Shown: positions 1,180 through 61,634 of the stretch, piece after piece | Layout of the letters: every line of letters starts with the position of its first letter | Numbering within the stretch: the stretch's first letter is position 1 | NCBI GenBank assembly: GCA_963575745.1 | Contig: CAUYUJ010000002.1 | Coordinates: 1,550,001-1,614,000, forward strand | From: Prorocentrum cordatum | Taxonomy: Eukaryota | Direction: 5' to 3' | Length of the DNA: 64,000 nucleotides | Position numbers and translations under genes: made by a program | Notes under the pieces: model-generated | Told to the model about the DNA's origin: nothing | The model's database searches: none | The model's input: only the letters and a program-made list of their open reading frames with translations

Positions 1180-1374
1180 CGTGTCTGAAAATATGTAGCG
1201 GTATTGAGCAAAGCTTGCAGCGATTCAGAGGAGATAGGAGGAGAAGCAACAACCATGCAAGACGTTACGGCAGTACCACGCTACGAGGAAGGAGGGGGAG
1301 GAGGAAGACACTTCTCACACGGTGCTTGCACACACTGCGGTTGGGGCCCTTGCCGGGTCCGGGCGACTTGCGTC

Positions 1375-1570
1375 GCACGGGCGGCTTCTGTGGCACGGGC
1401 GGCTTCTGTCGAGCGGGCAGCTTCTGAGCTTCTGTCGAGCGGGCAGCTTCTGTCGAGCGGGCAGCTTCTGTCGAGCGGGCTGCTTCTGTCGAGCGGGCTG
1501 CTTCTGTCGTACGGGCGTTTTGTGTCGCACGGGCGGTCTCTCTCGCGCGGGCATTGGATTCGGCACGGGC
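1375..1570. repeat. 18-bp minisatellite (GGGCAGCTTCTGTCGAGC)n
   Basis: Tandem copies visible at ~1396-1510 with degenerate flanks. Confidence 0.85.
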
Positions 1571-2555: not shown

Positions 2556-3051
2556 GGGTTGACCCAAAAAGGGGTCCAGCGACAAGGGGGTGGTGCATTA
2601 AATTTGGTGCAATAGATGTGTGAGTTGCAATACATGTGGGGCGTGCAATACATCCCGGGGCGCAAATGTATTACTGGATTCGGGGCTCAAAACGGGGGTC
2701 AATGCAAACGGGGGTCAGCCAGGGCACCGGATCTTGAGGGTTCCTGCGAAGACCCCTCTGGCTGACCCGGGTTAGCGAGCTGCTCGTGGCCGCGAGGCGG
2801 CCGCGCATATTGGCTGACTCGGGGTTGCGAAGACGTGCGTTGCATTTTTTGTTCCTGCATTGCAGTTGTTGGTTTCCTGTTGACCCAGGTTTGGATTGAC
2901 TTGGGTCAGAAGATCCCCGATGGATTCTCGCGTGGAGTACATAAGTTGCAATACAGTGTAATTCAATTCACTGGCGCAATACATTTGTAAGACAATTGCC
3001 CCAAATCTATTCCACCACCCCCCTGCAGTTGGACCCCTCTTTGGGTCACCC
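2556..3051. mobile_element. MITE-like element with ~55-bp imperfect terminal inverted repeats
   Basis: 2561-2613 GACCCAAAAAGGGGTCCAGCGACAAGGGGGTGGTGCATTAAATTTGGTGCAAT is an imperfect reverse complement of 2995-3047. No coding capacity. Internal part 2680-2770 resembles 38746-38840. Confidence 0.6.
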
Positions 3052-3159
3052 AAAATGATCATGATTATGATGATGGTGATGGTGATGGTGATGATGATGA
3101 AGGTGGTGATGGTGATGGTAATGATGGCGACGGTGGTGGTGATGATGATGATATCTAGG

Positions 3160-3391
3160 CCTCCTAGATGGGGTCCGAGTGGATGGGGTCGGAGGATCGC
3201 GCCGTATCGTCAATGTATCGGCGATGCGGCTCGATGTGGAGCCCGATTTTCGCCACCGACGGCGCCAATGCATCGCGGGCATCGCCAGTGCATCGCTGGT
3301 GCGTCGCCGATGCATCGCCGATGCATGGCCGATGCATCGCTGATGCGGCACCGATCCTTCGACCCCATCTACTGCGACCCCATCTGGGAGG
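3160..3391. mobile_element. Palindromic MITE-like element inside a (GAT/GGT)n tract
   Basis: Left end CCTCCTAGATGGGGTCCGAGTGGATGGGGTCGGAGGATCG pairs with right end CGATCCTTCGACCCCATCTACTGCGACCCCATCTGGGAGG. The core is made of GCATCGCCGAT/ATCGGCGATGC palindromic units. Related copies at ~19940-20225 and 39215-39250. Confidence 0.65.
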
Positions 3392-3509
3392 ACTCTATGA
3401 TAGCGATGGTGATGATGGTGTTGATGGCATGATGATGTTGGCGACGGTGATGGTGATGGCGATGATGATATAGATGAGGATGAGGATGAGGAGCGATTAC
3501 GATGACGAC

Positions 3510-4300
3510 AGCTTGCACGGGAGGCAAACATGGCGGCATCGAGACTCCAGAAGAGTTCAACATCATGCTCGAGGCGGCCATGGAGAACCTGCTAGACCAG
3601 TGGGCGCTCTGCGACTACGGCTTCGCTCTGGATGAGGACGGCAAGCAGCGCGTGACCCATCTCATTTGGGCAGACAACATTTTCTTATTAGCGTCTTGCG
3701 TTGACGAGTTCCGCCACATGGTGCAGGACGTCACGAATGAGATCGTCCGCATGGGTTTCACGTGGAAGGCGTCATCTTTGGAGTGCATGCTATGCGGCCC
3801 GGTTGCGAACGAGGGTGTTGAAAACGTATGTGTGGTGGCAGATAAGACTTACATATTTGAATTTGTACAACATATGTGGGTTGGGTGTGCTGCTTACTTC
3901 TGACGGCGATACTGCCACCAGCCTTGATCATAGACTCACGGCAGCCGAGAAGAACTTTTGGTGCAACGTCAGGATCCTGAAAGGGACAGGGGGCATCGCC
4001 CGCAAACTGAAGGCCTGGGCCAGGGGACCAGCGGCCAGCGCAGCAGATGGATCCGCATCATGGCATTTAGCAAAGCAGATCTTACTGAAAGCGAAACGGC
4101 GAGAATTCAATATGTTACGACGCATTCTCAAATTGCGGCACAAGCCTGGAGAGGGACATGAGAAATACATGATTCGCAGCGCCAGGTTCATAGAGAAGCA
4201 GTTCCTGGCGTTGAACATCCGGCCACTGCACAGCCGTATCTTGCTAGCCGTCTTCAAAAATGCATGGCGGGACAAGTCTTCATGTTCGCCTAGCGGCTAG
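3510..4300 (+). pseudogene. Non-LTR (LINE) reverse transcriptase fragment, frameshifted and 5'-truncated
   Basis: GGKHGGIETPEEFNIML matches the RT G..QG...SP..FN motif. THLIWADNIFLLA (3667-3678) matches the catalytic (Y/F)ADD-type motif. After a frameshift near 3875 comes LGVLLTSDGDTATSLDHRLTAAEKNFW, typical of the LINE thumb region. Confidence 0.8.
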
Positions 4301-4318
4301 GCAGCGAGCGCAAACGAC

Positions 4319-5137
4319 GTGAATGCGGTTTCAAACACGAGGGCTATGGACACCGCGTGGAGTGGGAGGAGGTGTTCGTGCAAGCGCAACGATTGTATCA
4401 CGGAGCCTGACTGGATGGCATGTTTTCCGCAATTCGAGTCGCACCTCTGTGAGGCATGGGGGCTCTTCAATCCCAGTGCCACCGCTGGAAAACCCGAGAA
4501 CGCCATAGTCGAGACCGGCCCTAAACGGAGGAGGACCGCCGCCCATCTTTTGGAACAGCTTCCAGACTCTCACGGCGACTGTGCCCCTATTGCACATGAA
4601 CAAGACCCCGTGGGGCGCATGGCTTTCATGACGGACTGCAGACCTTTAGCCGGAGCGTTGAGTGGTACAACCGTACTATCGAATCCCAGTTTGGTTCCGA
4701 TGTTCGAGCGTATCAGCCGCATTATCTTCGGCATGTTCAACTCTGGATGGCGCCCGGCGCGCGATATTGATAATGTGATTTGCTGGCGCTGGCGAGAGTG
4801 GAACGTTCGAGCAGACTTCTTGGTGAACTACACGATGGATTTCCGGAAGTCGTGGTTCCAACGTGGGCGCGCTTCAGCCGAGGATTTTGCTAATGCGAAC
4901 ATCTTGGTGCACACAGATGGGGGCACCCGCGCCGGGGCGTGCTCGGCTGCAGCATGGTGCGCTGAGGCTGTCGTTCGCAAAGGAGGGTGCGAAGTAACGA
5001 TTCCAGTATTATTCGCATGCACGGTTATTATTGGTCCCGTTTCTTCTTTTACTGCGGAGGCTTTCGCGCTTGAGGAAGCGGCAGAAGCAGTGAGGACCCT
5101 GACCAAAGCCACGAGCCACCAGCCGTCAAATGTATGA
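4319..5137 (+). pseudogene. RNase H-like domain of the same LINE, motifs in permuted order
   Basis: FMTDC (~4625-4639) and WREWNVRADFLVN (~4790-4828) come first, followed by ILVHTDGG (D at 4916) and SSFTAEAFAL (E at 5057). Confidence 0.6.
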
Positions 5138-5319
5138 TTTAGACAGCTGGTCCAAGAGGCCAGCGCCTTTCCTCAGACCCTAGCGTATTGCACATGTTTT
5201 GCCTTCGTCTGATCTCCATTCCGTTGCCCACGCTGCTGTGCATGCCATTCGTGACAGGTTCAAGCGGCCAACACTGTTCGTGCTTTAGGCTTAGCGAAAG
5301 AAAATAAAACAGCTTGCGC

Positions 5320-5980
5320 GATGGTGATAGTCATGACGATGATGACGATGCTGGTGACGGTGACGGTGATGGTGATGATGATTGCGATGGTGATGACGAA
5401 AACGATGGTGAGGTTGAGGATTGTGAGGAGCAGGGTGATGACGATGAAGATGATGATGGCGACGACGACGGTGATGACGTCAACGGTTAGTGCGACGGTG
5501 GTGACGATGTTGAATGTGATGATGCTGATGATGCTGATGATGATGATGATGATGATGATGCTTAGGGTGGTGGTTCTGATTTTGAGGATGAGGACAAAGA
5601 TAATAATGTTGATATCGATGGAAATGACGATTTTGATGACGATCGACAAACAGTAATCATGACGATGATGAGGCGCGCAGTCGTCGGAGTACGCTCTGTG
5701 CGCTGTGGAGGGCAGTCGCCCAAATCTTCCCGAAAGCGTTTTTGGGATCATCCTACCGACGGTGGCGGCGATGGTGGGGACGACGGGCGTATCATGATGA
5801 TGATCATGTCCATGGTGTTCATGATGACGCTGACGCTGCTGACGACGATGCGGAAGAGCATGATGATGGTGAAAACATGCGACGATGATGATGATATCGG
5901 CGACGGTGACTATGATGCTGACGATCATGATCATGACGCTGACGATGATGATGATGCGGATGATGATGATGATGATGATA
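5320..5980. repeat. Degenerate (GAT)n microsatellite tract
   Basis: Long GAT/GAC/GGT triplet runs giving poly-Met/Asp/His artefact ORFs. Confidence 0.9.
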
Positions 5981-6639
5981 CTGATTCCTCCCACTGTCCG
6001 ACGGCCGAATATGTTTGTTCAACCGCCTTCGGGCCACGCTAGAACTTGAGGGCGCGCGAAGCGCTCACGATGGTTCTACAATAAACACTTAACAACATGG
6101 TTTATCAATGTGTATATATATATAGTATTAAACCGTGCTTTCATTCCGGGTTTATTTTTTCTGGTCAAAGAACTGGGCCTGCCTGTCGGCATGGCGGCTA
6201 TGTTGTCGCGCCGCCGCCTCGTCGCCGCCCGTCGATTGGGCCTGTCTGTCGGTCTAGCAGCTATGTTGTCACCGTCGCCGTCCCGTCGCCGCATCGTCGC
6301 AGCCCGTCGTCTGGGCTTGTCTGTCGGTCTGGCGGCTACTATGTAGTCGCCGTCGCCGCCTCGTCGCCGTGCGTCGCTTGGGCCTGTCAGTCGGTCTGTC
6401 GGGTCCGTTGTCGCCCGTCGCCGCCCAAGATTTCACAACATTGATAGCACCGCAAAGATTGCACCACAAAGATTGTAACGCATATATATTCTATCCTAAA
6501 AGGAGATAGATTCTGACCCCCCTGGGATTATCGGTCCCCTTTTGGTATTCTAATTCCCAAATGATTCGACCGGTCGTCCATCGTAAATAAAAGTTCGTAT
6601 GATCCCAGCCAGGCCGGCATCGACACCCCCCGTCATCGT

Positions 6640-7320
6640 TTGGAAAAAAGTAGGCGCGCGCACTCGCTTATCAAATATCAGACGTTTCCCATAATCCTTT
6701 GCAAACAACGAGACGGAGTACACGCGCGCGTCGTCGCGCGCGCATGCCGAAATCGCTCAGAAGCCGTAGGTTGCGTAAGGATCTCAAAATCGAGTGTCCA
6801 AATACATACAGAACACATGGTTTCGCAACACTGATTTTCAACAACAAATGCGCGCTCTCTTGCGAATTCTCAAGGGAAGCCATTGGTTTTTCAACATTTT
6901 CATACCATCCTACCAAACGGGCTTCGCGCGCGCGTGTCGAAATCGTTCGAACGCCCTTGCGCGCGTGCTGTCGCGAAAATCCTTTGCAACAGACGGGACA
7001 AAGTGCATGCGCACGCGTCGTCGCGCGCGTATGCCGGAACCTTTCAAAACCGAGTGTCCCGAAACCACCCAAAAACATATGGTTTCGCAACATCCGTTCC
7101 TCCAAACATCATGCGGTCGCGCCATTGCGAATGCTTAAAACTGTAGGTGTTTTTCAACATTTCCACGGACTTCTGCTAAGCGAGCCGCTCGCGCCGCATG
7201 TCGAAACCATTCGAGCGCCGTTGCGCGTGTGCTGGGGGGGGGACGGCCCGGGTCAAATAATACCATGCGGGCCATTCTCACGCGCAGGCCGCGCGCACGT
7301 TGATTTTTCCAAAACCTTCA
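6640..7320. repeat. CGCG-rich dispersed repeat with internal ~300-bp duplication
   Basis: ~6700-6900 is similar to ~6990-7170 (GCGTCGTCGCGCGCG..ATGCCG, CGAGTGTCC, ATGGTTTCGCAACA, TTTTTCAACATTT). Confidence 0.6.
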
Positions 7321-7619
7321 TCGCCGACGCGAGGACGCCGTCATCGTCGTCGGCGGGATCAGCATCAGCGCCGTCATTGACTCGCTACGATCATCATCGT
7401 GTCTACAGTTGTCGACGTTGCCATGATACCGCGCTCACAAGTGCTCGCAGGGAAGTGCCCGCTGGGATGTGCCCAGCGGTCAGCGCCACCGCGGCTGCAG
7501 GGATGCACCAGCTAACACCACGCAGTCGTCGCAATAGCCGCCGCATGGGTTTTGCAAACCAGGTTGCGGGTGGGTGGATGGGATGTTTGCGCCAGCTGGG
7601 GGGGGGGAACAATTTCACA

Positions 7620-7965
7620 TTCGGCAAGGTGAGTTGCACCACGTAGATTGGACCACGGAGCTTGCATCACATAAGTTACACAACGTAGATTGCACGATTT
7701 ACAGTGCACAACACAGCTTGCACCACATAGGTTGATCTGCACGTGTTGCACCACACCGGCTGCACAACATAGATTGCACCACATAGGGTGCACAACACAG
7801 ATTGCATTACGTAGATCTCAGACCAACGGTTGTACCACATTGATTGCCCAACGCAAATTTCATCAGAGTTATTGCGCAGCGTAGACTGCACCACATAACG
7901 TGCACAATTTATATTGGACCACATAAGAAGCACAGCGTGTATTGCACCACAAAGTTTGCATTCCA
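7620..7965. repeat. Degenerate ~19-bp minisatellite (TTGCACCACATAGA-like)
   Basis: Recurrent TTGCACCAC / ACATAGATTG motifs. Confidence 0.75.
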
Positions 7966-8079
7966 TTCAATGGTGTGGGCCAGCACTGATTCAATTTGGG
8001 TATATACGGACCTGTACTTATGTATATATGTACTTGTATGGATACACAAAATCTTTAACACTAACAGGAACCACCAACA

Positions 8080-9047
8080 TTATCTTGGCGAAGGACCCAC
8101 CCATATACAGTCGTGAGTATCACACATGTCAGTGCCGTCTTCGGTAGAGTTCCCTTTGGGGGCTCGAAGCGTCTACGTGGTGTGCAGGCATGCGTTCCGG
8201 GCCGCCGTGCGAACGTTGCCAGTGGTGTCTTCAGCGGAGCTCCTTATGATGCCGCGAAGCGTGTGAGCGGTGTGCCAAAATGGAGGGCGGAACTGAATGC
8301 GAACGCAGCCACTGGGGCTCGGTGGAGCACCCGATGGTGTGCTGAGATGAGGAGTGGAACCGCATATGAACGCAGCCACTGGGGCCTTCGGTGGAGTTCC
8401 GTATAGGGCCACTACACATGTGAGGTGTGTGCCGACATGGGGGGTGGAACTGGATGCGAACGCCACCGCGGGGGCCGTCGGTGGGGTTCCCTATGGGGCC
8501 ACCGCACATGTGAGGTGTGTGCCGAAATGCGGGGCGGAACTGAATGCGAACGCCGCCACGGGGGCCTTTGGTGGAGCACCCTATAGGGCCACGAAACGCG
8601 TGAGGGGTGTGCCGACACTGGGGGTGGGACCGCTTGTGAATGCAGCCATTGGGCCCTTGGGTGGAGCTACCTTTGGGGCCACGAAACATGCAAGGGGTGT
8701 GCCGAAATAGAACATGGAATTCCATGCGAACATAGCCATTGGGGCCTTCGGTGTGGCATCCTATGGGGCCACGAAACGTGTAAGGGGTATGCCGAGATGG
8801 AGGGTGGAGCTGCATGCGACCGCATTCAGTGGAGCCTTAGGTGGAGTTCGCTGTGGAGCCACGAAACGTGTGAGGGGTGTGCCGACGTGGACGTGCGGAT
8901 GGCAGTGGCAGGGGTGTGAGGAGGGAGGAGGAGGAGGAGGAGGAGGAGGAAGAGGAGGAGGAAGAGGATGAAGAGGAGGAGGAGGAAGGAGAACGCGGGG
9001 CGCTGTTCCATCAAAGCGAAGACCCAGCACCACAGGAAGGGTGTGAA
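8080..9047 (+). mobile_element. Non-autonomous module carrying a ~60-bp tandem array
   Basis: Head TTATCTTGGCGAAGGACCCA; array of GGGGCCACGAAACGTGTGAGGGGTGTGCCGA... units at 8140-8890; (GAG)n tract; tail TCAAAGCGAAGACCCAGCACCACAGGAAGGGTGTGAA related to the tails of the next three modules. Confidence 0.55.
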
Positions 9048-40030: not shown

Positions 40031-40031
<1 letters not shown>

Positions 40032-45401: not shown

Positions 45402-45424
45402 GCGACCGCCAGGTTGTCACCCGA

Positions 45425-47100: not shown

Positions 47101-47132
<32 letters not shown>

Positions 47133-47329: not shown

Positions 47330-47372
<43 letters not shown>

Positions 47373-47530: not shown

Positions 47531-48081
47531 AGCAGGAAGGTGAAGGCCGTCATATGTGACACCCGTCGTCTTCTCTATTTGAGGAACTCTCATGGAATTC
47601 GTTTGGGCCGTTTTGGGGGCTGTCTCGGCATCCTGCAAGGCTGTCTTGCGGGTCCCTTTGGGCCCTCCTACGCCGTCCACGGGTCTCTTGGCCGAATGGC
47701 GGGTGCCTGGGGGCCATCGTGGGGCCGTCTTCGCGCATCGGAATGACATTCTACGACCGTGTTGGTCCCACGGGAGTCCTTTTTGGGCTGTCTTGGATGC
47801 CTCTTGGGCCACCGTGGAACCTCTTAGGCCATCTTGGGGCCCTCTTGGGGGCCTATTGGGCAGTCTTGGGGCCATCGTGGGGGCTTTTTGGGCTGTCTTG
47901 AGATTTCGGAAGTCCGAACAGGCGAGAATGCGAAAGTCAGTCAGAAACCCAAGGGGAAATGAATGAGTTTGGCTTCTTCGGACCCTGTTGGAGGTCCTCT
48001 TGTCGCCCGTTTGGGCCCTCTTGGAAGCACCTTTGATTCTAAAGTGAGCTGGGATACAGGCGAGAGGTAACGAGCGTGTGC

Positions 48082-48102
48082 CCGCGGCCGTTTGGGCTCA
48101 AG
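48082..48102 (+). other. Relict dinoflagellate spliced-leader-like sequence
   Basis: CCGCGGCCGTTTGGGCTCAAG versus DinoSL core CCGTAGCCATTTTGGCTCAAG: 17/21 identical with no gaps. Confidence 0.55.
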
Positions 48103-48639
48103 CGGTCGGCCGCCCAAATCTGACTACACCTCAGTGCGAGGCGTACCATTCGCCATCGAGACCGAAAATATCCTTCGCTTGAGATGGCCCGTCGCTCCCG
48201 CGACGACCTCCTACTGGGACTATCGTTTTTCAAACTTGGTAGCGGAGCTGGCCTATGGTGGTCAGCTCCTGCCCTACTCCTCACCATCCACGGCACTATC
48301 TGGTGGACTACTGACGTGGTGGAACATCAGGGTGCAGTGGGTTTGCGCGGAGGAATGTATATAACTACGCAACATAGCAAGGGCACTTGCAGTGATACCT
48401 CTGCCTACGCAGAAACCTCTTACTCGCGTCCTTCATCCGTGCGCTACTACACTCCTGAAGTCCACCCACCTACTCCAATTGGAAACTTCTTCGAAGACAT
48501 AATGCATGGAAGCGCGCGATGCGACATTGCGACCACATGCCGCAAACCCCAACCATCCGCATCCGACTACGACCTGCGAGGCCATTGGATTGGTATTACT
48601 ATCTATGGGTTCACATGGGTTGCTATCGGGCGCGCGGTG

Positions 48640-49945
48640 GCGCATATGCGTGGCGGAGACGGCACAAGAACGACCGGCCCCCATTGGGACCCGCCCGGTC
48701 AAGTATTTTTCCGCGAATTCGCTCGCGAGGCGCATGCCTGGATCAACGTGACCACAGGCAACATGACGGCCTCCGAACAAACTGCAGCCTTGCAGCGAGG
48801 ATTGTGGGGCCTCGCACGGACCATAGCCATGAGAGTTCCCCCAGCAGTTATCAATTTCGGCGTTAACATTGGTGGCCGCCATACCGATGGCGCCACCTAC
48901 ATCACGTTCCTCTCAAGTACGAAGTTCGAGAACCTAGAAGAGGAACGCCAACTCAACTCTGGTACAGCTCTCATTGTCTTCCGCGTCCATGCGGGAGAAC
49001 GGATCGACCAGACTCTGGCACGCTGCGAGATAGCCCGCTATGATGTTAACACGGCAGGCTTTAACATCCCCAACTTCCGAATTCGATCAGTTATTTCCCT
49101 TGGAGTGGGGACGTCGCGTGCGCAACAGATCCTGCAACCACTAAACCACCACATGCCGAGGGACTTGCAACAGTTTGACTCTCTATTTGAACGCGTAAGG
49201 TCATATGCTCACATTTTTGAGAAAAACCATGGCAATATTGGTGGTATCTTCAGTCGCGGTCACCGAACCGAGACCTTTCACGTTGACGCGAAAGCAGGGC
49301 AACCTGCTAATAACGTCCGGAATGACGATCCGCAACCAATGGAGAACACCACACTACTGACTCAGAATGGTGGTTCGGCCTCGGGGTCGCAAGATTCGAA
49401 GATTCCTGGGCCAGGTTTCGGGGGCCGCCCGATGCGGTGGCCCCTACGCACGCCGCGACCCTAATGGGCTCAGCGGGGCAGCCTGCTGAGTCCGACTTCG
49501 ACTCTGGGACCGACGCCGACGCGTCCTCGGACGACGAGGCTACCGCCCTAGACTTACTCCGACATGCCCGCGTACCTCACGGAAGAACAACAGGCGCAAT
49601 GGTTATTCCTAGGATACCAGAAACATAAACGCAGGTGGAGGCGATTTATGAAGAAGCCAGTTCGCAAGGCACGGCGCACTATCCGCCGGGCACTCAGAGG
49701 AAAGGGCAAGGGTCGAGGTAAGGGCAAAGGTAAATGGCGCCGACTGCATGGCAGAGGCATGTTAGCATGTCTAGTATCCTTTACCGGGCCACATCATGAA
49801 GATATGTTCCTAGGTGCAAGCAGTAACCGTAGGCATACATCAGGAGAAAGGTGAGGGGCGTCGGGGCAACCCGAAGGTTGCGAACGGTCAGACGACGGAG
49901 TGCGATTATCTGCCATAGCACTCGACACTTCCGCCGCGAATGCTC
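48640..49945 (+). pseudogene. Gag-like region ending in a CCHC zinc knuckle
   Basis: PHWDPPGQVFFREFAREAHAWINVT...QTAALQRGLWGLARTIA helical segment and a basic KGKGRGKGKG tract. C-D-I-C-H-S-T-R-H-F-R-R-E-C (Cx2Cx4Hx4C) appears at 49901-49943 once one extra base at ~49907 is removed. Confidence 0.7.
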
Positions 49946-52682
49946 TCAGGGCGACGGGGGAGGCAGAGGTCCGTCGATGCGTCTGGCTCAAACTGACTCG
50001 GACATACAGTATGTTGACTGGGGGTCACTGTTGGCCGACCCTGCCGACAGCTCAGTTGCAGTTGTTAACTTCATGGTTTCCAGATACTTGAATGCCACTA
50101 TGTCCCTCGAGAATTATGCCGACGGGTTGTTCGAGGATATATTCACTGGCCACAGTGAGATCGATCTGGCAGACTGGCTGGGAATGCCCATCGCGGGGCG
50201 ACCTGCCGACATGGAATACGTCGACAACTTCCACAGGGAGATGACGCAATGGCGGTGGAACCCGCGGAATCAGAAGCCGTCATTCCTGCGACAGAGGAGG
50301 AAATACAATTGATGCTTCATCACCAGGTTATTGGTAACCCGACAAACATGGAATTGAATGATGATGACCCTTTGCGGGGAAAGCCGCGAGATGCTGGCGA
50401 TCTGTCTGAACGCATCCAGTTCGAGCTCGGCCACAACGAAGACTTTCAATATGCATTCGTAGCTTCGGACCGCCCCATGAGCCGCCAGGAGCGATCGGCA
50501 AGCCGCCCGACCTGGAGACGTAGGTATCGCGCTGACGACGATGACGAAGAATTGGATGATGACGCACGTCTGGTACGTCGCGGTCGGGTCCGCAGTGGCT
50601 CGCCCGACCGTGCGCGCGCGCTCCAGCGGCGCTCGATCTAGCGGCCTTCAGCGCCCTCGCCCTCCTGATGCGAGGGGGCCAAGGACCCCTCCAAGGAAGG
50701 GCAATAAGCCTGACGCTCCTCCGAGGAGGGAGCGCTTGCGGGGGCGCCCGCTTCGAGGGGGGGGGCTTCGCGAAGAATATCCAGAAGGCGAAATGCAGCG
50801 CCTAGTTGGCTGCTCGGATGCTGGATTGGTTCGTCAGCACATAGACCCAGATGCAATGCGGCACTGGTTGAACAAGGGTTGGGCGGTTGAGCACCGGATT
50901 CGCCACTGGGATTCTCTTCGCAATGTTGATCGAAATGAACAAGACAAGGTCATTCGCTCAAAAAGGACAGGGGCTGTCAATGCACAAAAAGCCCTTATGC
51001 AGCGCGACCTCGAGAGGGCCATCATCGAGGATTGGGAACTTTACAGCGGCGTTGTTTGCACATGCTTCGAGCATGCCGACCACGGGCTCGGCTGCCCCAT
51101 GAGACGCCCATCAGGGGGCCCCGACTTCCGCAAGACACCGTGGGTCTGGTCTCGCGGTGATGGCCAGGGATACTGCGTCGATCCGAATATAGCACCATGC
51201 AACGAGCAGTTGGCGGAAGACGACTACGAACAAGCTACAGCCCAAGAAATGTCCCAATCTATCGAGATTTGGAAAATCGTCCACCTGTTCGGTTTTTATA
51301 TACAAATCCAACCGCGATTACAATGCGGGGAAAACCGCTTCGCCCACGCCAGAAGAATACGACCAGCAAGAAGATGAAGCTGAATACATGGGCGAAGCGG
51401 TAGACCCCGCGGCAGCCGTTCCTGGAGGGCACGCCTCGGATTACTGCGACGCCCTCTCCACTGTCACGGACGTCACTTACGAAACGGACGCCCCCATTGA
51501 CCCAGTGGACATCGCCACGAAAGACATGGATCTCCCCCCAGGAAGAAGAGTCGTCTACCGTGCTGGATCTGTAGGCTGGGCAAAGACCACTATTAAAGGA
51601 AGGCTGAGCGCTGACAAATGACCTGACCGTTAGGGGCAAGGCTACCATCGGGAATCTGGCACTCAGAAAGCCCGATGGGGAGGGCCTCAACCCTGGCAGA
51701 GGGCCCGCGCGCTATGGGCCATGGGTACCCGCAGGGGCAACGCCAAATGTACCTCCTCCCAAGCCGAAGACAGGTCCACCTACTGATATATCTCCATCTT
51801 CGGATTCATCGAGTCAGTCTCAGCCACTCGGACCTGATCAGCTTGCTCCAACGCCTAAACAGAAGAAGAGGAAAAGCCCAGATGACCCCAATCTTGGAGA
51901 TCGCAAGCAACAGCGACCTGCGGGGCAACCTGCTGATCGACGTCGATCCAGAGGACCAGCAGTGGCTGCCGCAGCAGCTGCATTTCAAGGCGCCAGCACT
52001 CCTACTCCGCAGGGCCCTGTACCACGTCGCGGCCGCGCACCTGGCCGGGCACACAGGACTGGCTGGACGCCGACGCTGGAGGGATCATCGAGGGATGCTT
52101 CTTCATCGCGGCATGGTGCCAAGCAGAGGCGATTGGAAACTACGTCGAAGGCATCAGGGGCAGCTCCCAAAGATTAGAAGTGCGAGTACTACAACATCAG
52201 CGAGAAGAAACGTCCGGATTTCGACATCAGTACCCCTCCAAGGACCCCTTGGACGCTAAGAGGATCCACAGGCGCCGCCCCGCCATCGGCAGGCGCCCGC
52301 GCACCTGCAGCATCGGCAACAGCAAAGTCTGCAGGACGGACTGATGAGCAAGATCAGAGCTCCGCGGGGGCAACCTGCTCTTACTCTAGAAATGCCCGTT
52401 GAATGCCGACAGTCTTGGGAATGTATGCGCACCGCCAGGCGAACGAAGATCAACCCAGCATATCACCCCCGTATTGATGGTGGGTCTGATCGATGCATCG
52501 CGGCGGAGTGCGACATCATAGGCGCGGCCGTCATTGCCGATCAGGACGCTCATGCGCGCCAGGTTGCACGCAATATCCTGCGTGGGCGCTCGGCGATCAC
52601 GTATCTGTCCGAGAAGAACGACTTGATGGGGATCCTTAAGGCAGACAGAGCTGTTGGTCCAGATTTGACCGTTGAGGAGCAG

Positions 52683-53403
52683 CGCTGCTGCTCAGAATGT
52701 CTTATTACTGCTACTCGTCACAATTCATTTCACACCAACTACCTCTCTGATAGGTCTCTGAGAGCAGTACCGTCTTTCGTCGAATTCGATGGATGGGTGG
52801 AGCTCTCGGAGCTGCTTGACAAGTGGCCACCTGAGGGATGTGATCGTTACCGCACCAAACACCTGGAGACTGTCTGGCGTTGTCTCAGCACCCTCCATTC
52901 GGCATATCAAGCACTAGCTGTGCTGAACTTGATCGGCATGGTCGACAATGCTGGTGTGCCTCAGATGAAGAAGTGCAAGTTCGCTACCGAGATGTAAGAG
53001 ACATACTTCATACGCCCATGTAATGGACACAGCAGTCCTGATATATAATGCCCTGAATCATTGTACATGATGATAAGGGGTTTGACCATTCCAGGTGCAC
53101 CTTGTAATTTCGTTCGTGGTACCCAATGGGAACATACCCCGAATATATTTCGCGTAGGACTGTCATGCCGTGCCGGCGACACCATCAAGAGAAAAAGGCA
53201 GACAGTTTGTTCATGCTTGCCCATATTTACCTAGTGACAACAGAATCCAGTCCGGCTAGCGCGTCGACTCCGACGTATTATGTATGGTTAGTCTGAAGAA
53301 CTTGTTTCGTGATAATGTGGCTATTTGGCGCTCAGCAAATAATATTATAATGTCGGCAGGCCGGAACGGCAGAATTCTTCCGACCCACACCGTCCAGATC
53401 ATA
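52683..53403 (+). pseudogene. Tpt1/KptA-like NAD-dependent RNA 2'-phosphotransferase (ADP-ribosyltransferase fold) domain within the retroelement
   Basis: Manual translation gives SECLITATRH (RH 52716-52721), DGWVELSELL (52788), IRPCNGHS (53010-53033) and FVRGTQWEHTPNIFRVGL (53109-53162). After a +1 shift in the A-run at 53192-53196 it continues GRQFVH, IQSG*RVDSDVLCMVSL, IWRSANNIIMSAGRNGRILP. All family motifs are present in order. Confidence 0.8.
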
Positions 53404-55711
53404 GGCATTCTTTCCCAACGAGAAGCGCAGGTATAATCGCGTGGGACATGTATGAATCAATCCTTTATACTTGGGGCAACGCGCAGAAATATACGAACAG
53501 TGATTTTACCCTCGACGAGTTGTGCGAATTTCAAAATGGCGCATCATCGTCGAAGGATTGGTTTATTCCAAAAGCCATACAATTTGGAGTGCCCCGAACC
53601 GACGCCTATCCAGGAGGTCGAGTTCTCTACGGTATCTATGATGAAAGAAGGGTACCAAGCGGAGACACTTGCAGGGGGATCCGACGGATCATGGATTCAG
53701 GCCCAGAGCGCGGACGTGACTGGTATGACATCGAGTGGGATTACTCCCAACGACATGCTGTACGCCAGCGATCCGTGGCGTGCCCAGACGCAGCACCTGC
53801 CAGTACCTGCAGGGCAACCTGCGCCGTTTGAACTTATGAGTAGGGCCACAACTCCCTTTGGGACTCCACAGAGTGCTGGGAGCACCAACAGCCTACAGGC
53901 GAGGCTCCAGAGCATTCGGATGGACCTACAGCTCTACCAGGCTTTGCAGGCGACGTCGCCGTTCGCATCGCCGCGTCCACGCGCGGGGCAACCTGATTTC
54001 CCTGACCACAGCGCTGCACAGAGGACCGAGAGTTTGGCTGGTCAGCAAGAGTGGATGCACCGGCACATGCGCGAAGCCGCACAGAGCATGCGCAGGGGCG
54101 GCATCGACCTCCCCAGCGCTAGCTGGACGCCACCTTGGGAGTATGTCCCGGACCCAAATCCATCGCCGGACAACGCCAATAGGTACTGATACGTGCCAGC
54201 ATTTTTCAGTCATCCGACATGCGATCCGACAGCTGCAGGGCGCCCTACAGCACCACCGATGGACTTCCCATTGTACCCCTACTAGCATGCTCAGGTGACG
54301 GGCAACCCTCGCGCGGGAACGCAGCCGGAGAACCCGCGTGTACGAGCGACAGCCGACGACTTCTATCAGTCTCACTTGGCACGCGGCTGTAGTTACACGT
54401 CAGGTGGGTGGGCCAGATCCCTCATTATGGATATTTGCTTACCCCCATGGTCTCAGATGTGACTGAACAGGCCCCTAGCCTGGTAGCGCCATCGCCCATG
54501 GGGGAGTTGCGACAGATTCTGGCCACTCACGAGGCGCAGCAGGCCAACCTCTCAATGCAATTGGCCCGCCAGCGTCGCAATCATGAGCGCCAAGCAAACA
54601 GGATGCTGGGTCGTGCGGGGCAACCTGCTACTCCAATCATAGCAGGGACACCTGCATTCAACCTGGCAGCACTTGCAGCCATGAAGCCACCGTCGGTTCC
54701 ACCGATCCAGTGAGGTTGGCGAAACCACTCTGGAGCGCCAGGCGCGTATCAGGCCATCGGCAACACCGCTGGTCATCAGCGACGGTGACTTTACAAGTGT
54801 GTCATATGCCTGGACCACTTCATGCATCACGACGGTCTGGGGGCTTCAGTGTGGTCACAGTGATGGGACCGAGTGGCGCACGCTCATGTGGACAGGCAGT
54901 TGGCTGGTACTCTGGAAGGTGCTGCAACTGAGGCGTCCTGCGCAATTTGCAGGGTCGCTGGTCCAATCGCAGCTGAGTTTCATTATGGCCTTGCTGGAGA
55001 TCAAGATGCAGCAAAACGTCATGGAGAAATAGTCCGGGGGGCTAGCGAACTCAGGGACCTTCGCGGAGAGCTCAACCGCAGCACGGCGATCATCAGCCAA
55101 CGCGGTGCATGCGACGGCAGCTACCACGCCTGCTATGGATACGCCTATGCCATTGATCGCAGAAACAGCCAACAGCGCAGGGACACCTGCTACGACTGCA
55201 CCTGCCGCGTTGCCGGCCAACCATACCTGGCTGAGGCGTGCGGAGAGAGCCACAGAGAGGAGCGCGCAGTGGCTTCAAGCTCCACGTACCTACATGCCAT
55301 ATGGGAGAGACATCCGCCCGCGCAGCCAGCGCAGGACGGAGGGCTCGGCGAGCGTACGCAGCGGCATCAGTGCGATATCCGAGCGCGACATGTTACACAC
55401 TGTGTTGATGGTGCACACAGATGGCCAGATAGGCATGCGCGCTGACGAGGATGCGTTCATGAACGTGCCGCTCGCATCTGCACCGCACCCGCACATGCAT
55501 GACGAGTGTCCTACGGCTTGGATGTTCGAGAAGAGCCCCACTACGGAGGAGGAGGCCCGCGGATACATGAACGTCTTCACGTCTCTGACCCCTGAACGAC
55601 TGGGTGGCGGAGCAGAGGCGCCGCAAGGGTATGCATGGTACGACGCTGTCTGAAGTGCCAGGAATATTCGGATAATGCCATGAATGGGCCCTAGCCGCGA
55701 ACAGTGGGACC

Positions 55712-56200
55712 ATGGCGCAAGGAACGTTGACGATCCTTCTGGACATCAGCAGCAACATCAACATCATTGGTCTGAAAACGGCACAGACGTTTGAACGCGC
55801 ATCCCGCTCCCATGGACACGATATCAGGAAGCTGAACCTGACGAAGAGGCTCTACGTGTCTGGAGTTGGACACGATGCCGCTGCATGCGGCAAGTCCTTG
55901 CACTGCAGAATTGCTTGCAAAGAAAAAAGGAGATCCGGCGGGGGGGCCTGCTGTGCCGAGATGTGATACCTACTCAGCCAACGTGTCTGAGGGTTCAGGG
56001 GAAAATGTCTTTGCTATCCTGGGTCTGAGGAGTATGTTTACCATGGGGGCTATCCTGATCTTGGAGCAGGGGGCACGAGAAGATGGTCATCCCTGGCTCA
56101 TATGTACAAGCTCTTCCTTGGTAAGGTTGCCAGAGTACTTGATTTGATGAAAGCGCTCTCAGGGCACCTGGCGCTCAAGGTCGACGAGTGCGGGACCACA
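55712..56200 (+). pseudogene. Retropepsin-like aspartic protease, frameshifted
   Basis: ILLDISSNINIIG (D 55742, degenerate D-x-G) and flap-like VSGVG. After a shift in the A-run at ~55920: AILGLRSM...AILIL, then SGHLALKVDE. Confidence 0.65.
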
Positions 56201-56914
56201 ACTGAGGACAAAAGGTCGATGTCGTTTGTTTTCACGGCCAACCCTCACTGCGAGGATGCCCCGCTGCTCGTCAAAGAAGCAGCTGACACAGAGCCAGTCG
56301 CGGGGCAACCTGCTTCGAGTAGTGCGGTGACACCTGCTATGAGCGATGCCCGTTCGTACATGCCGTCTCAGGATACCAAGGGCATCAGCTTCTCCATCAA
56401 CGAATTTCGCGATCCAGTCTTTGGTGAATAACACCTTGAAGACCTGGCATGACAGGAACGCGACCTTCGGGTGCATACCCGCACCGGCCGACCAGGACTT
56501 CGCCTTGCGGAACTTGCAGGCGAAGGTCTATCAGGCCATCTACGAGGAGGGCAATAAGTGGATACCGCCCGACGCGAACGCAGGGGCATCTGCGGGTGGA
56601 ATGGATGCCGCTGAGAAGTTTGATATCTTTACTTCCAGCAGCGGTTCAGCAGCGCAGCATGGCACGGGCATTTGGACGCCCCCATCGCTTGAAAATGAGT
56701 AACGGGGGCAGGCGCGCGCCGCGGCCGCCCGCGCCTGCTCCGACTGGCCGAACACTTTGGCGCTGTCATCTAGCGCGGGTAAACTTGCATTATTTTCTCA
56801 GGCGCCGGCTGCGCGCGCCAGGGACATTTGCAAGCCCGGCTGCGCGGCTGCCAAGGACAGCAGTGGGCCCGGCTGCGTGGCCGCTGCAGCACATGAACGC
56901 TCATCGCATTATTA

Positions 56915-57520
56915 TCACTCTCGTGCACTTGTCGTTGAGGACATGCGGACAGCTTGCGCTGAACTCCGAGCTCGTGGTTACATGTGTGACCGCATCGCAC
57001 ATACAGAGATTATGACATCTACTGGTACACAGTTTTTGGGTGCTCTACTCTCGGGGGGTTATCAATTGCCATGGGTGGCAACGCCCGCTGACTGGCACGT
57101 TCGGCTGCCTGGGAAGCGGGCAGGGCCGCATGGCCAACGCATCCGAAATCTGATGACTCAGGCTCGGGCTCTACGTATGTCTACTGTACTTGTGACCACC
57201 AGGTTATTTCTGGAAACAGGGTCCCATACGAGATGTCATTGAATATCTCGACTTGCAGGTCATGCGTATGCGATGCTGCCATCTCGGTCTGGAATGCGAC
57301 CATTCCAGTAAATTGCCTAGCGGATCATATCTGCAAGTGGCAACTACCTTCACGCGCATCCCAACCAACTTGTGGAGATGTACGTGTCAAACCGCAGGGG
57401 AACCTGCTCGACTTGCTGAGCATGAACTTGACTGGCATAGCCCAGGCGCCCAGAAGGCAGAATGGCGCAACAACACATTGGCTATCATGACCGCGAGATT
57501 GATTGATCAAATGGAGTTAT
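56915..57520 (+). pseudogene. Possible second, highly diverged DNMT-like domain
   Basis: ALVVED...ELRARGY, QLPWVATP, MRCCHLGL and WRCTC...H parallel the motif order of the DNMT at 58237-58860, but the catalytic PC and ENP motifs are missing. Confidence 0.3.
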
Positions 57521-58236
57521 ACAACACAAAGAGAAACCACGCGAGTAGTATACACCGTAGCATTCACACACGAGTGGATAAAGGAGCTCGAACTTACGTC
57601 CAGTCTCCAAAGAATGGCCCTGAATGGGACCATGTCGCACGACCTGTAACGGTGAACCTGGGCGACAATCAGATTATACAAGACCTCAAGATCTAGGAAA
57701 AGCTTATCGGGTGCAATTTCAATGCGCCGTTACCGAATGGCGAAACAAACATTCGTACTCGGTTATACTAGGAACCGCCAGAACTGGTTCTCATCGGACA
57801 AGAGGACCAGCGACCACGCCCAAGGCGAGTTGCGTTCGTCGACGACGATCGCCCCCCTCCCCCTTCGATTGAGCGCGGCCGCGTGCCCCCTTCTATTCCC
57901 GAATTCCCGACGTCAGGTTCACATGGTACTGAACAACAGACAGCACTACCGACAGATGCCCGAATCAAACACAAGGAATATCATAATGCCAACAAAGAGG
58001 CGAGCATCAAGCCACGCAAGATACCGAAGGTAGCCGAAGAAGGCAACGACGACTGCGGGGATGACCTCAAAGGTGCCAGCTATAGTGCGCACTACACCGA
58101 CGTTCCCCTTGACTCCGACACGAAAAGCGTTGATGAGGAGGAAGCCTTCATCCGATTATTTGCGGGGCTACCTGCTGAAGCATACGCAGATGTATTCTCC
58201 ATAATCCCAGCGTTATGCCATGGACGACACAACAAG

Positions 58237-58860
58237 GTTGACATGTTGGAACTGTGTGGAGGAAGTGGAGGTACATCGCAGCTAGCACTCAGCCGGGGTT
58301 TGTCTTCCGAGGGGAACTTTGACAACCGTTCATGCGTTGACCTGGGAAACAAGGAGGTCCAGGATGCAGTGATGCGCTACCTGGACGCGTGCTTCGGCAA
58401 TTGTGTCATGCGGTCACCCAATTGCAGAACGACCCGACTCCCATAGTTCAAATCCCAAGTCAACTATGACGCTTGACATGAACACCACGTAGAAGATCTT
58501 CAACACATCAAGGTCTGTGGAAAAGTTGCCATGCGTCAGAACGACCTTCGACGCTTTCACATACGAGAACAACCAGTGGGTACTTGGGTGGATCAGATAC
58601 CACCATGGACCACATTGGCCATATGCAAGGGCACCTGCCAGGTGCACATGGATTGATGTACTACTGGCTTACGTGATTCCCATGGGGTATTGATACGAAA
58701 ACCGACCGAGATCATGGCCAACCACCGTCTTCTACTGACGCCTTTTGAACGAAAACGATGTGCTGGCCATTATAAAAATGCGTCGGTCTGTAGCAAAGAA
58801 CTGTCCACGGCTGCGCATTCTACTTCAAGGATGCAGTCTCTTTTCGTCGACGCAGTTCAG
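58237..58860 (+). pseudogene. C5 cytosine DNA methyltransferase-like domain with in-frame stops
   Basis: Single frame: VDMLELCGG (motif I, 58237-58263), SPNC (motif IV-like), REQP (motif VI-like, 58564-58575), MD*CTTGLRD and IRKPT (motif VIII-like), RCAGH. Stops at 58444, 58474 and 58654. Confidence 0.7.
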
Positions 58861-59610
58861 ATCGCGCACGACCATTTCCAAGTCAACCGTGATCCCTTTC
58901 ATTGTCACCCATATTCTTCCACCGTGCTAGTCACTCACGTGATGGGATATGATTTGAACGATCCAACTATCCCTTGAAAACCCGACGGGTCGATCACGAG
59001 ACCGCCTTCGGGAGGGTTAGGATGCCTTGCATGCGCGGATAGCGATAACATGCGCTTTCCCTCGCATGACAGAAACCCTGAGCATTGCAGGCGGTATGAT
59101 AAGGAAGACTACCATTGGGAATGTCCGAGCTGCGAGAAGAACTACGGCCATAACAAGCCTGGACATGCACGGATACATGGCAAATGCAAGTTTGCCAAAC
59201 CTTGGAAGGTGTCCGACAATCGCGGACAGGCACCACTGGCTCCTGCCGATCCAGCAGCACCACCGCCCGAGGCACAAGCCGCACCACCACTTGTGCGGCC
59301 ACGAGCACCAAGACCCGGCTCTAGAGCCGGACCCACAGCGGGTGCCAGCAGCCACGACATTACAGTCGCCAGACATGCTGCCGAACCTGCTGCAGGGCAA
59401 CCTGCCTCGAGTGGAGCGGGTAGTTCGGATGGCCACATCCGACTGCCACAGGTCAGAGTCAGATGTTACCGACAGCAAGGAGGATATCCACCTTTACCGC
59501 CACCTGCGGGTAACCCTGCTGGACGCCCGCGACTTCCAGACTGGTCAAGGTTCGGCGTGCAAGTCAGTCTACACAACTTACGATGCCTTGATCCAAGCGT
59601 GGCAACACGC

Positions 59611-60600
59611 GAGCTGCGGAAGCTACTTTTGTGTTGGTCCCATGCGAAAGAGCCTGAGGTGAGACTCATCTTAACCAAGATAGGTCTGGACAGCGTCAGA
59701 CTCAAGCTGATCAGCGGTGTCTGCGACACATGTCGGGAGTGCAGGGCTTGGGACAAGCTTGGGCATGCGGTTATGCCATCTACTGCACTGCCTGGCAAGT
59801 TCCAAGCAGAAGTTGAATGTCACCTCCTGTTCTACGAACAAGAACATAACATACTTCATAGCATCGATCGTTGCATTCGCTATGCTACTGGAATGGAGAT
59901 ACCGAACACGACAATGACCAGTATCCTGGATGCGTACCATCAGTACTGGATGCAGTTTGGACCCGCAAAGGTATTCTACTCCGATGGAGAGGGCACCCTC
60001 AACAACGACACTGCGAATGCAGTCCTTAAGGCAAAGGTCGCTGAATGAAGGATACGTGCGCGTGGACGACACGCTACGACGATCGAAGCCATACATGGCA
60101 TTTTGCGCCATCTACTCCATGTCATGGAAGCAGAACTCGACAGGTTAGATATACGTCAGTGTTCACACGACTACTGCATGAAGCCTTGTTTGCCGCCAAC
60201 GCGCTCACCTTTTTATAATGAGTTGTTTCCATGCAGCGGTCTGTTTCGACGGCGACCGGCATTGCTCCCTGACTTGCTCAGTTCTCCTGGGTCACGAGCA
60301 GCCGACGGAAACGTCGGATCATTCTCGTGAACAGATGATGCGCAAGGTCTGCTTCGAAGCTATCACGCAGGCCACTGCAGTAGCCAAGACCAATCGCGCA
60401 TTACGCACCATCACCAGTCACCACTACTACGATGAAGCAGATTTAGTCGATTACCATCGCCCCACAACCACGAAGGACAACTGGGGCGGCTGGAATGGCC
60501 CATTCCCGGCCGCGCGAAACGATCCCTGCAGGGGTCAAGTCATCATTGGAGCGGGAAGCCGCGACGTTCAGGCACAACGCGGCGATTTACGACATTCGCT
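59611..60600 (+). pseudogene. Retroviral-type integrase (HHCC + DDE core + C-terminal domain), decayed
   Basis: ELRKLLLCWSHA...CDTCREC zinc domain, VECHLLFY (first D now H at 59821), IDRCIRY, FYSDGEG (D 59983), HATTIE (E 60085) and downstream DLVDYHRP...WNGP. Confidence 0.8.
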
Positions 60601-61634
60601 TTATATTGAAGCTTTGATAGCCAGAGAGATTGGCTCCGACTACACTGCACTACGGACAGTGTTGACGTTTGTGGCCAGTTTACCTGCGGGGGGACCTGCC
60701 ATGACATTTGGCTATGTCCCGACCAAGAAGGGAACGCTTCAGATGACAAGTGCAAGCCGACTATCTCCTAAGGTACATCTGGCTTTACAGTACCTCATCA
60801 GAAACTTCTTCCGCGTCGAGAACGTAGTTTTGGTTAGGTTAGCCGAGAATATCCACGAGCAACCTCCGGTGGCTTACGCTGACAGTTGCACATTGGTCCA
60901 CTATGACAACGATGCGAACCCGGGGCTTCACTATGATGGGGCAGAAGGCGCGGCTCTCAACATGCACGATATGAACGGACCAGCACATTCAATAATCATC
61001 CAGTGCCTGAAGTCCACCGAACCTCAAGCGGGCTTCGACCAGGATATGACAAAGTTTGAGGAATTGGTTGATATACCGACACAGGGCGGAAACGCAAGAG
61101 AAGCCCCAGAAGCCGAACCACCGCAGGAGGATGGGCGGCTTCCCACGATACATGAGGAATCGGAGGCTGACTTCGAGGCACATATTATAAAAGTGTGGTA
61201 CACAGAACTACAAGATGAAAGGGAGCTACTGGAGGCAACTCCACTAGAGGACCTTTTCACCGTACCCGCGCAGATGATTCCAGACGACAGTGCGCTGATC
61301 ATTGTTGCTGAAGAAGAACAGCGGGGACACCTGCCTAAGTGGGGGCACCCGCGCGACTCCGACACCGAGGAGGCGCATCATGCCCCATTGTGCTCCACGG
61401 TCGAAGACTGCAGTTTTGGACTGGGCTCGGACGAAAACGGACAATATGTAGAATTCTGTTTTGCGGCAGAAGTGTCAAAGCTAGTTAGTCCTACCCGAAC
61501 AGCAGCACAGGTTATTCCCCACATGCTTCGTGGGTTTCTGGTTTTCTGCCTTGCCTTGCCGCGCCCGCGACGCTCGCACCTCGCACCTCCCTCTCCGTCT
61601 CCTTCTCACACACCTCACTCGACCCCTCCTCCTC

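Follow-up and report, generated by a model that had tools for sequence, protein, structure and literature searches.

A probable decayed copy of a giant Copia-order retrotransposon with Tpt1-like, RING and C5-methyltransferase-like domains in Prorocentrum cordatum

The stretch of DNA analysed here, hereafter the window, comprises 64,000 nucleotides of Prorocentrum cordatum (assembly GCA_963575745.1, contig CAUYUJ010000002.1, positions 1,550,001 to 1,614,000 of the forward strand) and consists of GC-rich eukaryotic DNA that is rich in simple repeats. Between 48 and 62 kb, its plus strand is a chain of medium-sized open frames with repeated frame switches, in which an initial annotation, made from the letters alone, had seen a giant retroelement of Copia order with a multi-enzyme cargo. 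Our analysis confirmed this observation as a whole and supports its interpretation as Copia. With a probability of roughly 85%, we read 48.2-61.6 kb (+) as a single old, inactivated and 3′-truncated copy from a high-copy family of giant Ty1/copia-order long terminal repeat (LTR) retrotransposons of ~15 kb. The domains are unrecognisable in the window copy alone, and every assignment given below was made via relatives.

All parts of the element lie on the plus strand. At its 5′-end a candidate primer-binding site (PBS), TGGTAGCGGAGCTGG, was located at 48237..48251; the 5′ LTR, whose start is undefined, is expected to end just upstream. A gag-like region follows at 48496..49875 in frame f0, where residues 63-628 of the open reading frame (ORF) of the metagenome contig L001, described below, match 48229-49875 with 53% identity (tblastn). 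The remnant of a CCHC zinc knuckle lies at 49908..49943 in frame f2 and reads ICHSTRHFRREC in the window and CDICGSTQHFRREC in L001. A conserved Cys/His domain occupies 50739..51275, with a CxCx5Hx3C core at 51054-51095 and 40% identity to residues 877-1059 of the L001 ORF. It precedes a degraded Tpt1/KptA-like RNA 2′-phosphotransferase domain (52347..53430) and a conserved linker of no known family (53431..54800), which is collinear with residues 1544-2229 of the same ORF at ~35% identity. Next come a degenerate RING finger (54844..54956), with LQCGHS and SCAICRV at the places aligned to the RING of L001, and a retropepsin-like protease (55598..56167), which carries LLDISSNINIIG at 55736-55771 and corresponds to residues 2440-2653 of the L001 ORF.

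The 3′ half begins with a post-protease region containing a degenerate methyltransferase-like duplicate (56343..57480), followed by a C5 cytosine-methyltransferase-like domain (58220..58975) with ELCGG at 58249, SPNC at 58414, REQP at 58564 and three in-frame stops. Two extra Cys/His zinc-finger-like motifs (59020..59193) lead to an integrase (59623..60330) that comprises an HHCC motif at 59623-59745 and a D,D,E core at 59812, 59974 and 60076 (core span 59812-60090) and is interrupted by one TGA. The post-integrase region (60311..61579, frame f1) extends to the truncation point. Through the relatives, the series from gag to integrase that had been listed initially was thus recovered on the same strand and near the same positions; the RING finger at ~54844-54956 had been missed.

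The evidence for a single element in the 5′ half comes mainly from contig L001 (8780 nt), which was retrieved by a contig search with the protein P0173 and is 99% identical to it. Its ORF at 820..8778 encodes 2653 amino acids without a stop, is open at the 3′-end, and contains in this order a gag-like region, a CCHC knuckle, the Cys/His domain, a full-length Tpt1/KptA domain, a RING finger and a retropepsin-like protease. When aligned to the window, it yielded nine collinear tblastn pieces from 48229 to 56167, with 53% identity in gag and 32-40% elsewhere. The query span of 7770 nt nearly equals the window span of 7938 nt, which leaves no room for a large foreign insertion in 48229-56167. Likewise, P0173 (1627 aa; PF01885 and RING) is collinear with 52359-56203 over five frame changes, and residues 109-454 of the polyprotein P0019 match the gag-like region at 48595-49725 (E 1e-24); in a separate alignment, its residues 106-444 were placed on 48586-49689.

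These alignments also bear on the possibility that the locus is a mosaic, that is, a Copia fragment interrupted by insertions of unrelated elements or of parts of host genes (Tpt1, RING, methyltransferase). Such an origin would fit the many frame changes and stops of the window copy, a stretch of 1.07 kb (51275-52347) that gave no tblastn match to L001, and the spacing in P0019, which has only ~1300 residues between gag and its methyltransferase-like domain, compared with ~2750 codons in the window. However, the same parts stand in the same order and at near-equal spans in the uninterrupted ORF of L001, P0173 stems from a data set other than that of L001, all parts lie on one strand, and contigs from other copies covered 30 of 30 bins of the region in a DNA run (X1, see below). 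We therefore consider a mosaic highly improbable. Nested insertion had been named beforehand as the outcome that would speak against the annotation, and the collinear ORF of near-equal length indicates one element instead.

The individual domains were examined in these relatives. The RING finger of the L001 ORF (residues 2130-2183) scored 33.8 bits with zf-RING_11 and 29.5 bits with zf-RING_2, both above the Pfam cut-off, and RING matches above the cut-off were likewise obtained for P0019, P0175 and L002, a second contig. The protease motif of the relatives is D-[I/P]-G-[S/A], not D-S/T-G, and is followed by a motif of the LLGLR type. Two-sequence BLASTP comparisons connected the protease of P0173 with those of P0019 (5e-14) and P0175 (2e-18), and L002 matched L001 in both RING (E 2e-13) and protease (E 1e-8). 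Pfam assigned no family to gag or protease, including those of the L001 ORF, and the Cys/His domain had no match in Pfam, PDB sequences or Atlas.

In the window copy the Tpt1-like domain is damaged by two TAA stops, a frameshift near 53.2 kb and a gap of four residues at the KxRL motif. Its read-through (52260-53231, P0002) reached only 16 bits with PTS_2-RNA (E 0.013), below the cut-off of 26. The nearest relatives of P0002 are transcript fragments with 56-70% identity. Higher scores with PF01885 were obtained for one of these fragments, P0169, which is 60% identical to the window domain (45.9 bits), and for the L001 ORF (61.8 bits, profile positions 5-177 of 177), and the Tpt1-like call of the initial annotation holds on these grounds. 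Both sequences also matched solved TRPT1 (P0169, E 1.8e-8; L001, E 6.3e-13, structure 7yw3); NCBIfam gave no more than a sub-threshold Tpt1 match for L001. L001, P0173 and P0169 all contain the motifs ALRH, KxRL and GRQFIH, of which GRQFIH alone was aligned to TRPT1 by a tool, and we take these motifs to supply the R-H...R...R catalytic tetrad. With cellular Tpt1/KptA (PF01885; TRPT1 structures 7yw3 and 7yw2) the domain shares the full-length Pfam match in L001 and the segments IRAxxGH, HGT and GRxxIH, which align to TRPT1, whereas it differs in its location within a retrotransposon polyprotein, its diverged N-lobe and a long insert. We found no description of Tpt1/KptA inside a retrotransposon in the literature, though libraries of transposable elements such as Repbase may already hold such consensuses.

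For the 3′ half, frame f0 was read through from 57772 to 60327 with X at five stops (four TGA, one TAG), and the resulting sequence of 852 residues (P0001) was compared with 1.84 billion representative proteins in a full HMMER scan. This yielded 1123 matches at E<=1e-3, 520 at E<=1e-10 and 78 at E<=1e-30, among them polyproteins of 1,700-3,300 aa. RVT_2, the Copia-type reverse transcriptase (RT), was present in 15 of 20 long relatives, always downstream of the integrase match (12 above the curated cut-off, three below), and rve was listed in seven of the 20 at the place that matches the window integrase. None of the 20 contained PF01885 according to Pfam. A profile of 53 relatives (A2) aligned its positions 82-847 of 1787 with 57211-60144 of the window and, after a frame shift, its positions 900-1156 with 60311-61579 (E 2e-31); the latter region was also matched by P0024, P0080 and P0012 at E ~1e-25. 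The two extra zinc fingers proposed initially hold as well: the consensus of A2 and that of a further alignment, A7, both retain their pattern, CxGC...H...C / WxCPxC...H...C, and Pfam has no family for them. A search of PDB sequences with P0001 returned no relevant match, and no relative of the protein P0007 turned up among viral contigs. In line with the initial annotation, no RT precedes the integrase, and profile A2 detected none behind it in the window either. The order of integrase and RT in the relatives supports, as far as sequence comparison goes, the assignment to the Ty1/copia order that had been proposed.

A link between the two halves is provided by the upstream end of L001. An ORF at 2-691 of this contig matches the last 150-170 residues of 26 polyproteins that contain methyltransferase, integrase and RT (e.g. 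residues 1789-1954 of 1964 in P0024, E 3e-43). Approximately 320 bp after the end of pol, L001 contains a block of 21 nt that is identical to 48231-48251 of the window and includes TGGTAGCGGAGC. This block is shared by L001 and the window amid otherwise divergent DNA and has a single exact match in the window. We take TGGTAGCGGAGC to be complementary to the initiator-Met tRNA; no tRNA gene was found in the window. The upstream ORF, the ~320 bp and the PBS block suggest the layout pol end, LTR, PBS and gag, of which L001 holds only one LTR copy.

Both the RVT_2 matches and this layout argue against a DNA transposon or an endogenous virus that merely uses an integrase of retroviral type. Such an element would explain why RT, RNase H and a second LTR are missing from the window. 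Nevertheless, in the 15 long relatives RVT_2 and the integrase match share one ORF, with RVT_2 downstream, RVT_2 is also present in L002, the pol C-terminus of L001 is followed by ~320 bp, a tRNA-type PBS and gag, and the family match in the window ends abruptly at 61579 within simple repeats, as truncation would cause it to do. Moreover, the RT part of profile A2 has no match anywhere in the window, which indicates that the copy was cut off before RT. A non-retroelement is accordingly the least probable of the readings considered, and we retain a truncated Copia-order retrotransposon.

The gap between protease and integrase is bridged by two sequences. P0019 (3301 aa) contains, in order, gag (109-454), RING (884-945), protease (~990-1130), a methyltransferase-like domain (1844-2105), integrase and RVT_2 (3058-3288). 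L002 (7358 nt) encodes RING and protease and, after one in-frame TGA, a further 1765 residues with the upstream domain, the fingers, integrase and RVT_2 (31.7 bits; cut-off 31.6). As judged by sequence comparison, the order and collinearity of the domains extend across copies and distant relatives, and the Tpt1, RING, integrase and RT parts of the relatives belong to the families named. The TGA of L002 (2059-2061) separates the RING-protease and pol ORFs, which share one frame; it may have arisen by recent mutation or may permit read-through of the kind known from some retroviruses. L002 is filed in a bacterial metagenome-assembled genome yet encodes a Copia polyprotein of eukaryotic type, and is probably misbinned eukaryotic DNA.

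The domain at 58220..58975 was examined by structure prediction. An AlphaFold2 model of the relative P0090, computed with 53 aligned relatives, had a mean predicted local distance difference test score (pLDDT) of 85.1 and a predicted template modelling (TM) score of 0.75. A Foldseek search of the PDB placed Dnmt2, MET1, DNMT1 and DNMT3 first (E from 1.4e-4, TM 0.3-0.4), with Dnmt2, a tRNA methyltransferase, as the best match. C5 DNA methyltransferases accounted for the 12 best VIA rows and for most of the named BFVD rows, some of them being viral enzymes of 210-225 aa. In Atlas, P0090 fell near unnamed clusters only, the nearest named one being the C-5 DNA methylase family (0.84), which we regard as a lead. 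Three motifs that presumably represent motifs I, IV (with the catalytic Cys) and VI (with its Glu) follow strands 1, 4 and 5 of the model. Among 57 distinct relatives, motif I reads E-[LIV]-[C/F]-G-G (E in 56, both Gly in 56, C in 33 and F in 22), motif IV P-[P/T/N/V]-C (P in 56, C in 57; the middle residue P in 25, T in 14, N and V in six each), so that the canonical P-P-C occurs in 25, and motif VI E-[Q/N/H]-P (E and P in all 57; Q in 39, N in 14, H in four). Alignments A1 and A2 contain only ~12 residues between DQC and KKPT, followed by a C-x-G-x-H-x-H cluster, and show no large target-recognition domain. The predicted fold and the motifs support a C5-methyltransferase-like domain; sequence profiles do not. 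The DNMT placed at 58237 by the initial annotation stands in the former respect and fails in that of PF00145.

Several results weigh against the interpretation given above. Pfam recognised no family at E<=0.01 in the 41 stop-to-stop ORFs of the window, and only noise at E<=10 in the 13 most promising ones. The window contains neither RT nor RNase H nor an LTR pair, a direct repeat between 46.0-48.7 kb and 60.5-64 kb was not found, and the retroelement status consequently rests on relatives. PF00145 matched none of the 20 long relatives at E<=0.001 and, at E<=10, neither P0090, P0005 and P0046 nor the neighbouring window ORF; when the methyltransferase profile A1 was compared with PDB sequences, no DNMT was found. 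The arrangement of pol end, LTR and gag in L001 could reflect tandem copies or an assembly across the LTR. For the sub-lineage bearing Tpt1, we found no sequence that spans gag to RT, as L001 ends in the protease; when proteins that connect protease and methyltransferase were sought, only P0173 itself and one RING protein were returned. Furthermore, the cargo is not universal. Tpt1 was not detected in P0019 or the other long relatives, and L002 lacks exactly the stretch that matches 58185-58999, the methyltransferase-like domain. The former suggests that Tpt1 marks a sub-lineage, the latter that the methyltransferase-like domain behaves as a module. Finally, the activities of the cargo enzymes, considered below, are inferred only.

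Some of these points concern the question whether the methyltransferase-like domain is a working DNA methyltransferase at all. It might instead be a Rossmann-fold pseudo-enzyme that plays a structural part beside the integrase, or a Dnmt2-like RNA (tRNA) methyltransferase that forms 5-methylcytosine (m5C). The consistent failure of PF00145, the apparent lack of a large target-recognition domain, Dnmt2 as the best Foldseek match and the ability of L002 to manage without the domain would all be in keeping with this view, as would a Ser in place of the Cys in a homologous Symbiodinium stretch, translated by eye from the part of the supplement available (PMC5776459). On the other hand, none of the 57 relatives lacks the motif IV Cys or the motif VI Glu, and all but one retain the motif I glycines, across 25-50% identity; in addition, C5 DNA methyltransferases occupy the best 12 rows in VIA and most of the rows that bear a name in BFVD. 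We regard a domain without DNA methyltransferase function as possible, though less likely than not, and keep to a C5-methyltransferase-type domain that may act on DNA.

The DNMT-like domain annotated initially at 56915 is only weakly to moderately supported as a degenerate duplicate of this domain, and only its part at 57175-57480 was detected in the window. The upstream domain of the relatives aligned with the methyltransferase domain in hhalign over 163 columns (E 1.5e-4, score 37), as compared with E 0.2-0.3 and a score of ~15 for reversed controls; an extended comparison (seven sequences, 440 aa) gave no signal. P0120 and P0010 match 57175-57480, the C-terminal half of the duplicate, and a match of the P0173 C-terminus to 56343-56699 was seen by eye only. 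The upstream domain is probably a methyltransferase-like copy that has lost the catalytic motifs, as judged from these alignments.

Apart from the element, a second methyltransferase-like domain was noted at 45458-46228 (+) in an uninterrupted frame of 536 aa (ORF 44621-46231). Its motifs, LELFAGSEG, GTPCNTW and FLENPAS, look more canonical. Homology to the domain of the Copia element is shown by hhalign (probability 83%, E 9e-6, 205 columns) and by profile A2 (E 4e-11). The second domain has no Pfam match and may belong to another element or to a host gene.

The dead and truncated state of the copy had escaped the initial annotation. In 12 aligned segments we counted 24 in-frame stops and at least 10 frame changes. 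In addition, the first Asp of the integrase is changed to His and a Gly of the protease to Ser, several RING cysteines are lost, and the KxRL motif of the Tpt1-like domain is deleted. A reading of TGA as a sense codon was rejected, since all three kinds of stop are present and frames shift as well. CpG decay was likewise rejected as the cause of the damage: the ratio of observed to expected CpG is 0.94 in the element (48230-61580) and 0.89 in the whole window, that is, without the depletion expected from long-term heavy CpG methylation.

In run X1, a DNA run that contains a fifth of the sampled words, 21,394 contig records matched 47.5-63.5 kb at a likeness of at least 80% and covered all 30 bins. 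No RNA run was listed as containing the sampled words. Of the contig records, 1324 showed at least 99% likeness, 3309 fell between 95 and 99%, 7677 between 90 and 95%, and 9084 below 90%. The other copies differ at some of the window stops and carry small indels at some of the places where the frame shifts. The coverage and these differences indicate a high-copy repeat family of which the window copy is a decayed member.

The size of an intact element was estimated from L001 and P0173, in which the PBS and the end of the protease region lie ~8.4 kb apart, together with a pol of ~5.9 kb (P0024, 1964 aa) and short LTRs, which gives about 15 kb and is roughly twice the size of an ordinary Copia element. 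Such an element would consist of a short LTR, the PBS, one giant polyprotein or two adjoining ORFs (~4,700 aa) and a second LTR. The predicted protein order is gag, CCHC, Cys/His, Tpt1/KptA-like, RING, protease, degenerate methyltransferase-like copy, C5-methyltransferase-like domain, two fingers, integrase, RT (RVT_2) and RNase H. Transposition would proceed in Copia style, with tRNA-primed reverse transcription in gag particles, processing by the element's own protease and integration of the DDE type. The methyltransferase-like domain, which lies directly N-terminal of the integrase, may methylate cytosines in the element's cDNA or at the site of integration. The Tpt1-like domain, which retains R-H...R...R in intact relatives, might use NAD+ to act on a 2′- or 5′-phosphate where an RNA or DNA strand ends, be it the template, the cDNA or the tRNA primer, and the RING finger might serve as an E3 ligase for gag or a host factor.

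The closest known parallels in architecture are the Ty1/copia-like elements SmTCL1-4 of Symbiodinium microadriaticum, which measure 7.8-9.2 kb by their annotated LTRs and have LTRs of 118-248 bp (Chen et al. 2018, PMC5776459). They share with the window family the position of integrase upstream of RT and presumably the shortness of the LTRs, in view of the ~320 bp that separate the end of pol from the PBS in L001. Moreover, in supplement file 7 of that paper the 12-mer TGGTAGCGGAGC directly follows the annotated 5′ LTR and is identical to that of the window and L001. The same file contains, at nt ~7130-7790, a homologous stretch between protease and integrase, seen in a translation by eye only, in which the Cys of motif IV is replaced by Ser. 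In contrast to the window family, the SmTCL sequence of file 7 leaves no room between CCHC and protease for Tpt1, RING or the Cys/His domain, the elements are much shorter than ~15 kb, and the available text of PMC5776459 annotates no extra domain.

Capture of DNMTs by retrotransposons is known from SymbioLINE-Dnmt, SymbioDIRS-Dnmt3 and streptophyte Gypsy-DNMT3 elements (de Mendoza et al. 2018, PMC5890265), and the Copia elements of Symbiodinium, its most abundant retrotransposons, are stated in the accessible part of that paper to lack any DNMT domain. A preprint on EpiLTRs describes such DNMTs in DIRS, LINE and Gypsy/chromovirus elements, the word Copia being absent from the portion at hand (bioRxiv 10.64898/2026.05.21.726589). 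These elements resemble the window family in carrying a domain of C5-methyltransferase type in a retrotransposon ORF, and their authors propose self-methylation of new cDNA (PMC5890265; bioRxiv 10.64898/2026.05.21.726589). As far as the two texts go, the known DNMT elements are LINE, DIRS or Gypsy/chromovirus and were found with PF00145, whereas the window family is of Copia order and has a short domain between protease and integrase that is invisible to PF00145. An arthropod Copia lineage has captured a methyl-CpG-binding domain (de Mendoza et al. 2019, PMC6673714) and thus likewise acquired an epigenetic module of its host; in the parts of the paper available, however, that module reads methylation, in contrast to the writer-type fold found here, the host group is another, and neither Tpt1 nor RING is present. 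In size and fold, the domain is similar to the short C5 methyltransferases of Tetraselmis virus 1 (218 aa; Foldseek E 6.4e-6) and Lactococcus phage P087 (212 aa; E 9.9e-5), with TM scores by target of 0.48-0.50. Their identity is only ~12%, and they are free-standing viral genes.

DNMT capture, known in LINE, DIRS and Gypsy elements, has served as an argument for an influence of mobile elements on host methylomes. The presence of a methyltransferase-like domain missed by Pfam in a Copia clade of at least 57 distinct members suggests that screens of this kind may undercount methyltransferases borne by transposable elements. A Tpt1 domain in a retrotransposon would link NAD+-dependent modification of nucleic-acid ends, or tRNA processing, to reverse transcription. 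Both enzyme families act on tRNA (m5C formation by Dnmt2-like enzymes, removal of the 2′-phosphate by Tpt1) or on nucleic-acid ends, and we propose an action on the element's own replication intermediates. In its widest form, we consider this proposal rather doubtful as a whole. It assumes a large, unannotated Copia-order clade of marine protists with a cryptic domain derived from a C5 methyltransferase before the integrase, which would include the heat-activated SmTCLs (by eye). One sub-lineage would have doubled in size by acquiring Tpt1, RING and Cys/His domains, and its enzymes would modify replication intermediates of the element or the primer tRNA, thereby marking new cDNA and escaping silencing by the host. 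If true, the element would alter its own nucleic acids chemically, which is the self-modification that the initial annotation had supposed.

The closest relatives of the window copy (P0006, P0008, P0022 and P0168-P0172) are short, transcript-derived sequences with 56-78% identity that carry the EukProt label Pyramimonas sp. CCMP1952. Set against a PBS that matches Symbiodinium elements, this renders either the label or the host range questionable.

The surroundings of the element are themselves repetitive. The truncation point lies in simple repeats (61384-62985), which read as STAQHS-like in translation, and in run X1 the summed contig depth at ~61.9-62.5 kb far exceeded that elsewhere, which indicates another very abundant repeat. 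On the minus strand, a frame of 438 aa (62684-64000) runs off the end of the window; it contains motifs rich in Cys and, as seen by eye, a DGSG stretch resembling RNase H, yielded no match in Pfam or PDB sequences for its ORF at 62684-63997, and probably belongs to a different mobile element adjoining the truncation point. Long imperfect tracts of trinucleotide type (GAT/GGT, GAG, GAC) are located directly upstream of the element (46400-48000) and at, for example, 5300-5650, 15400-15850, 16150-17300 and 39700-40100. Moreover, a tandem array at 9200-14650 consists of dozens of copies of a 101-bp unit with 60-95% identity.

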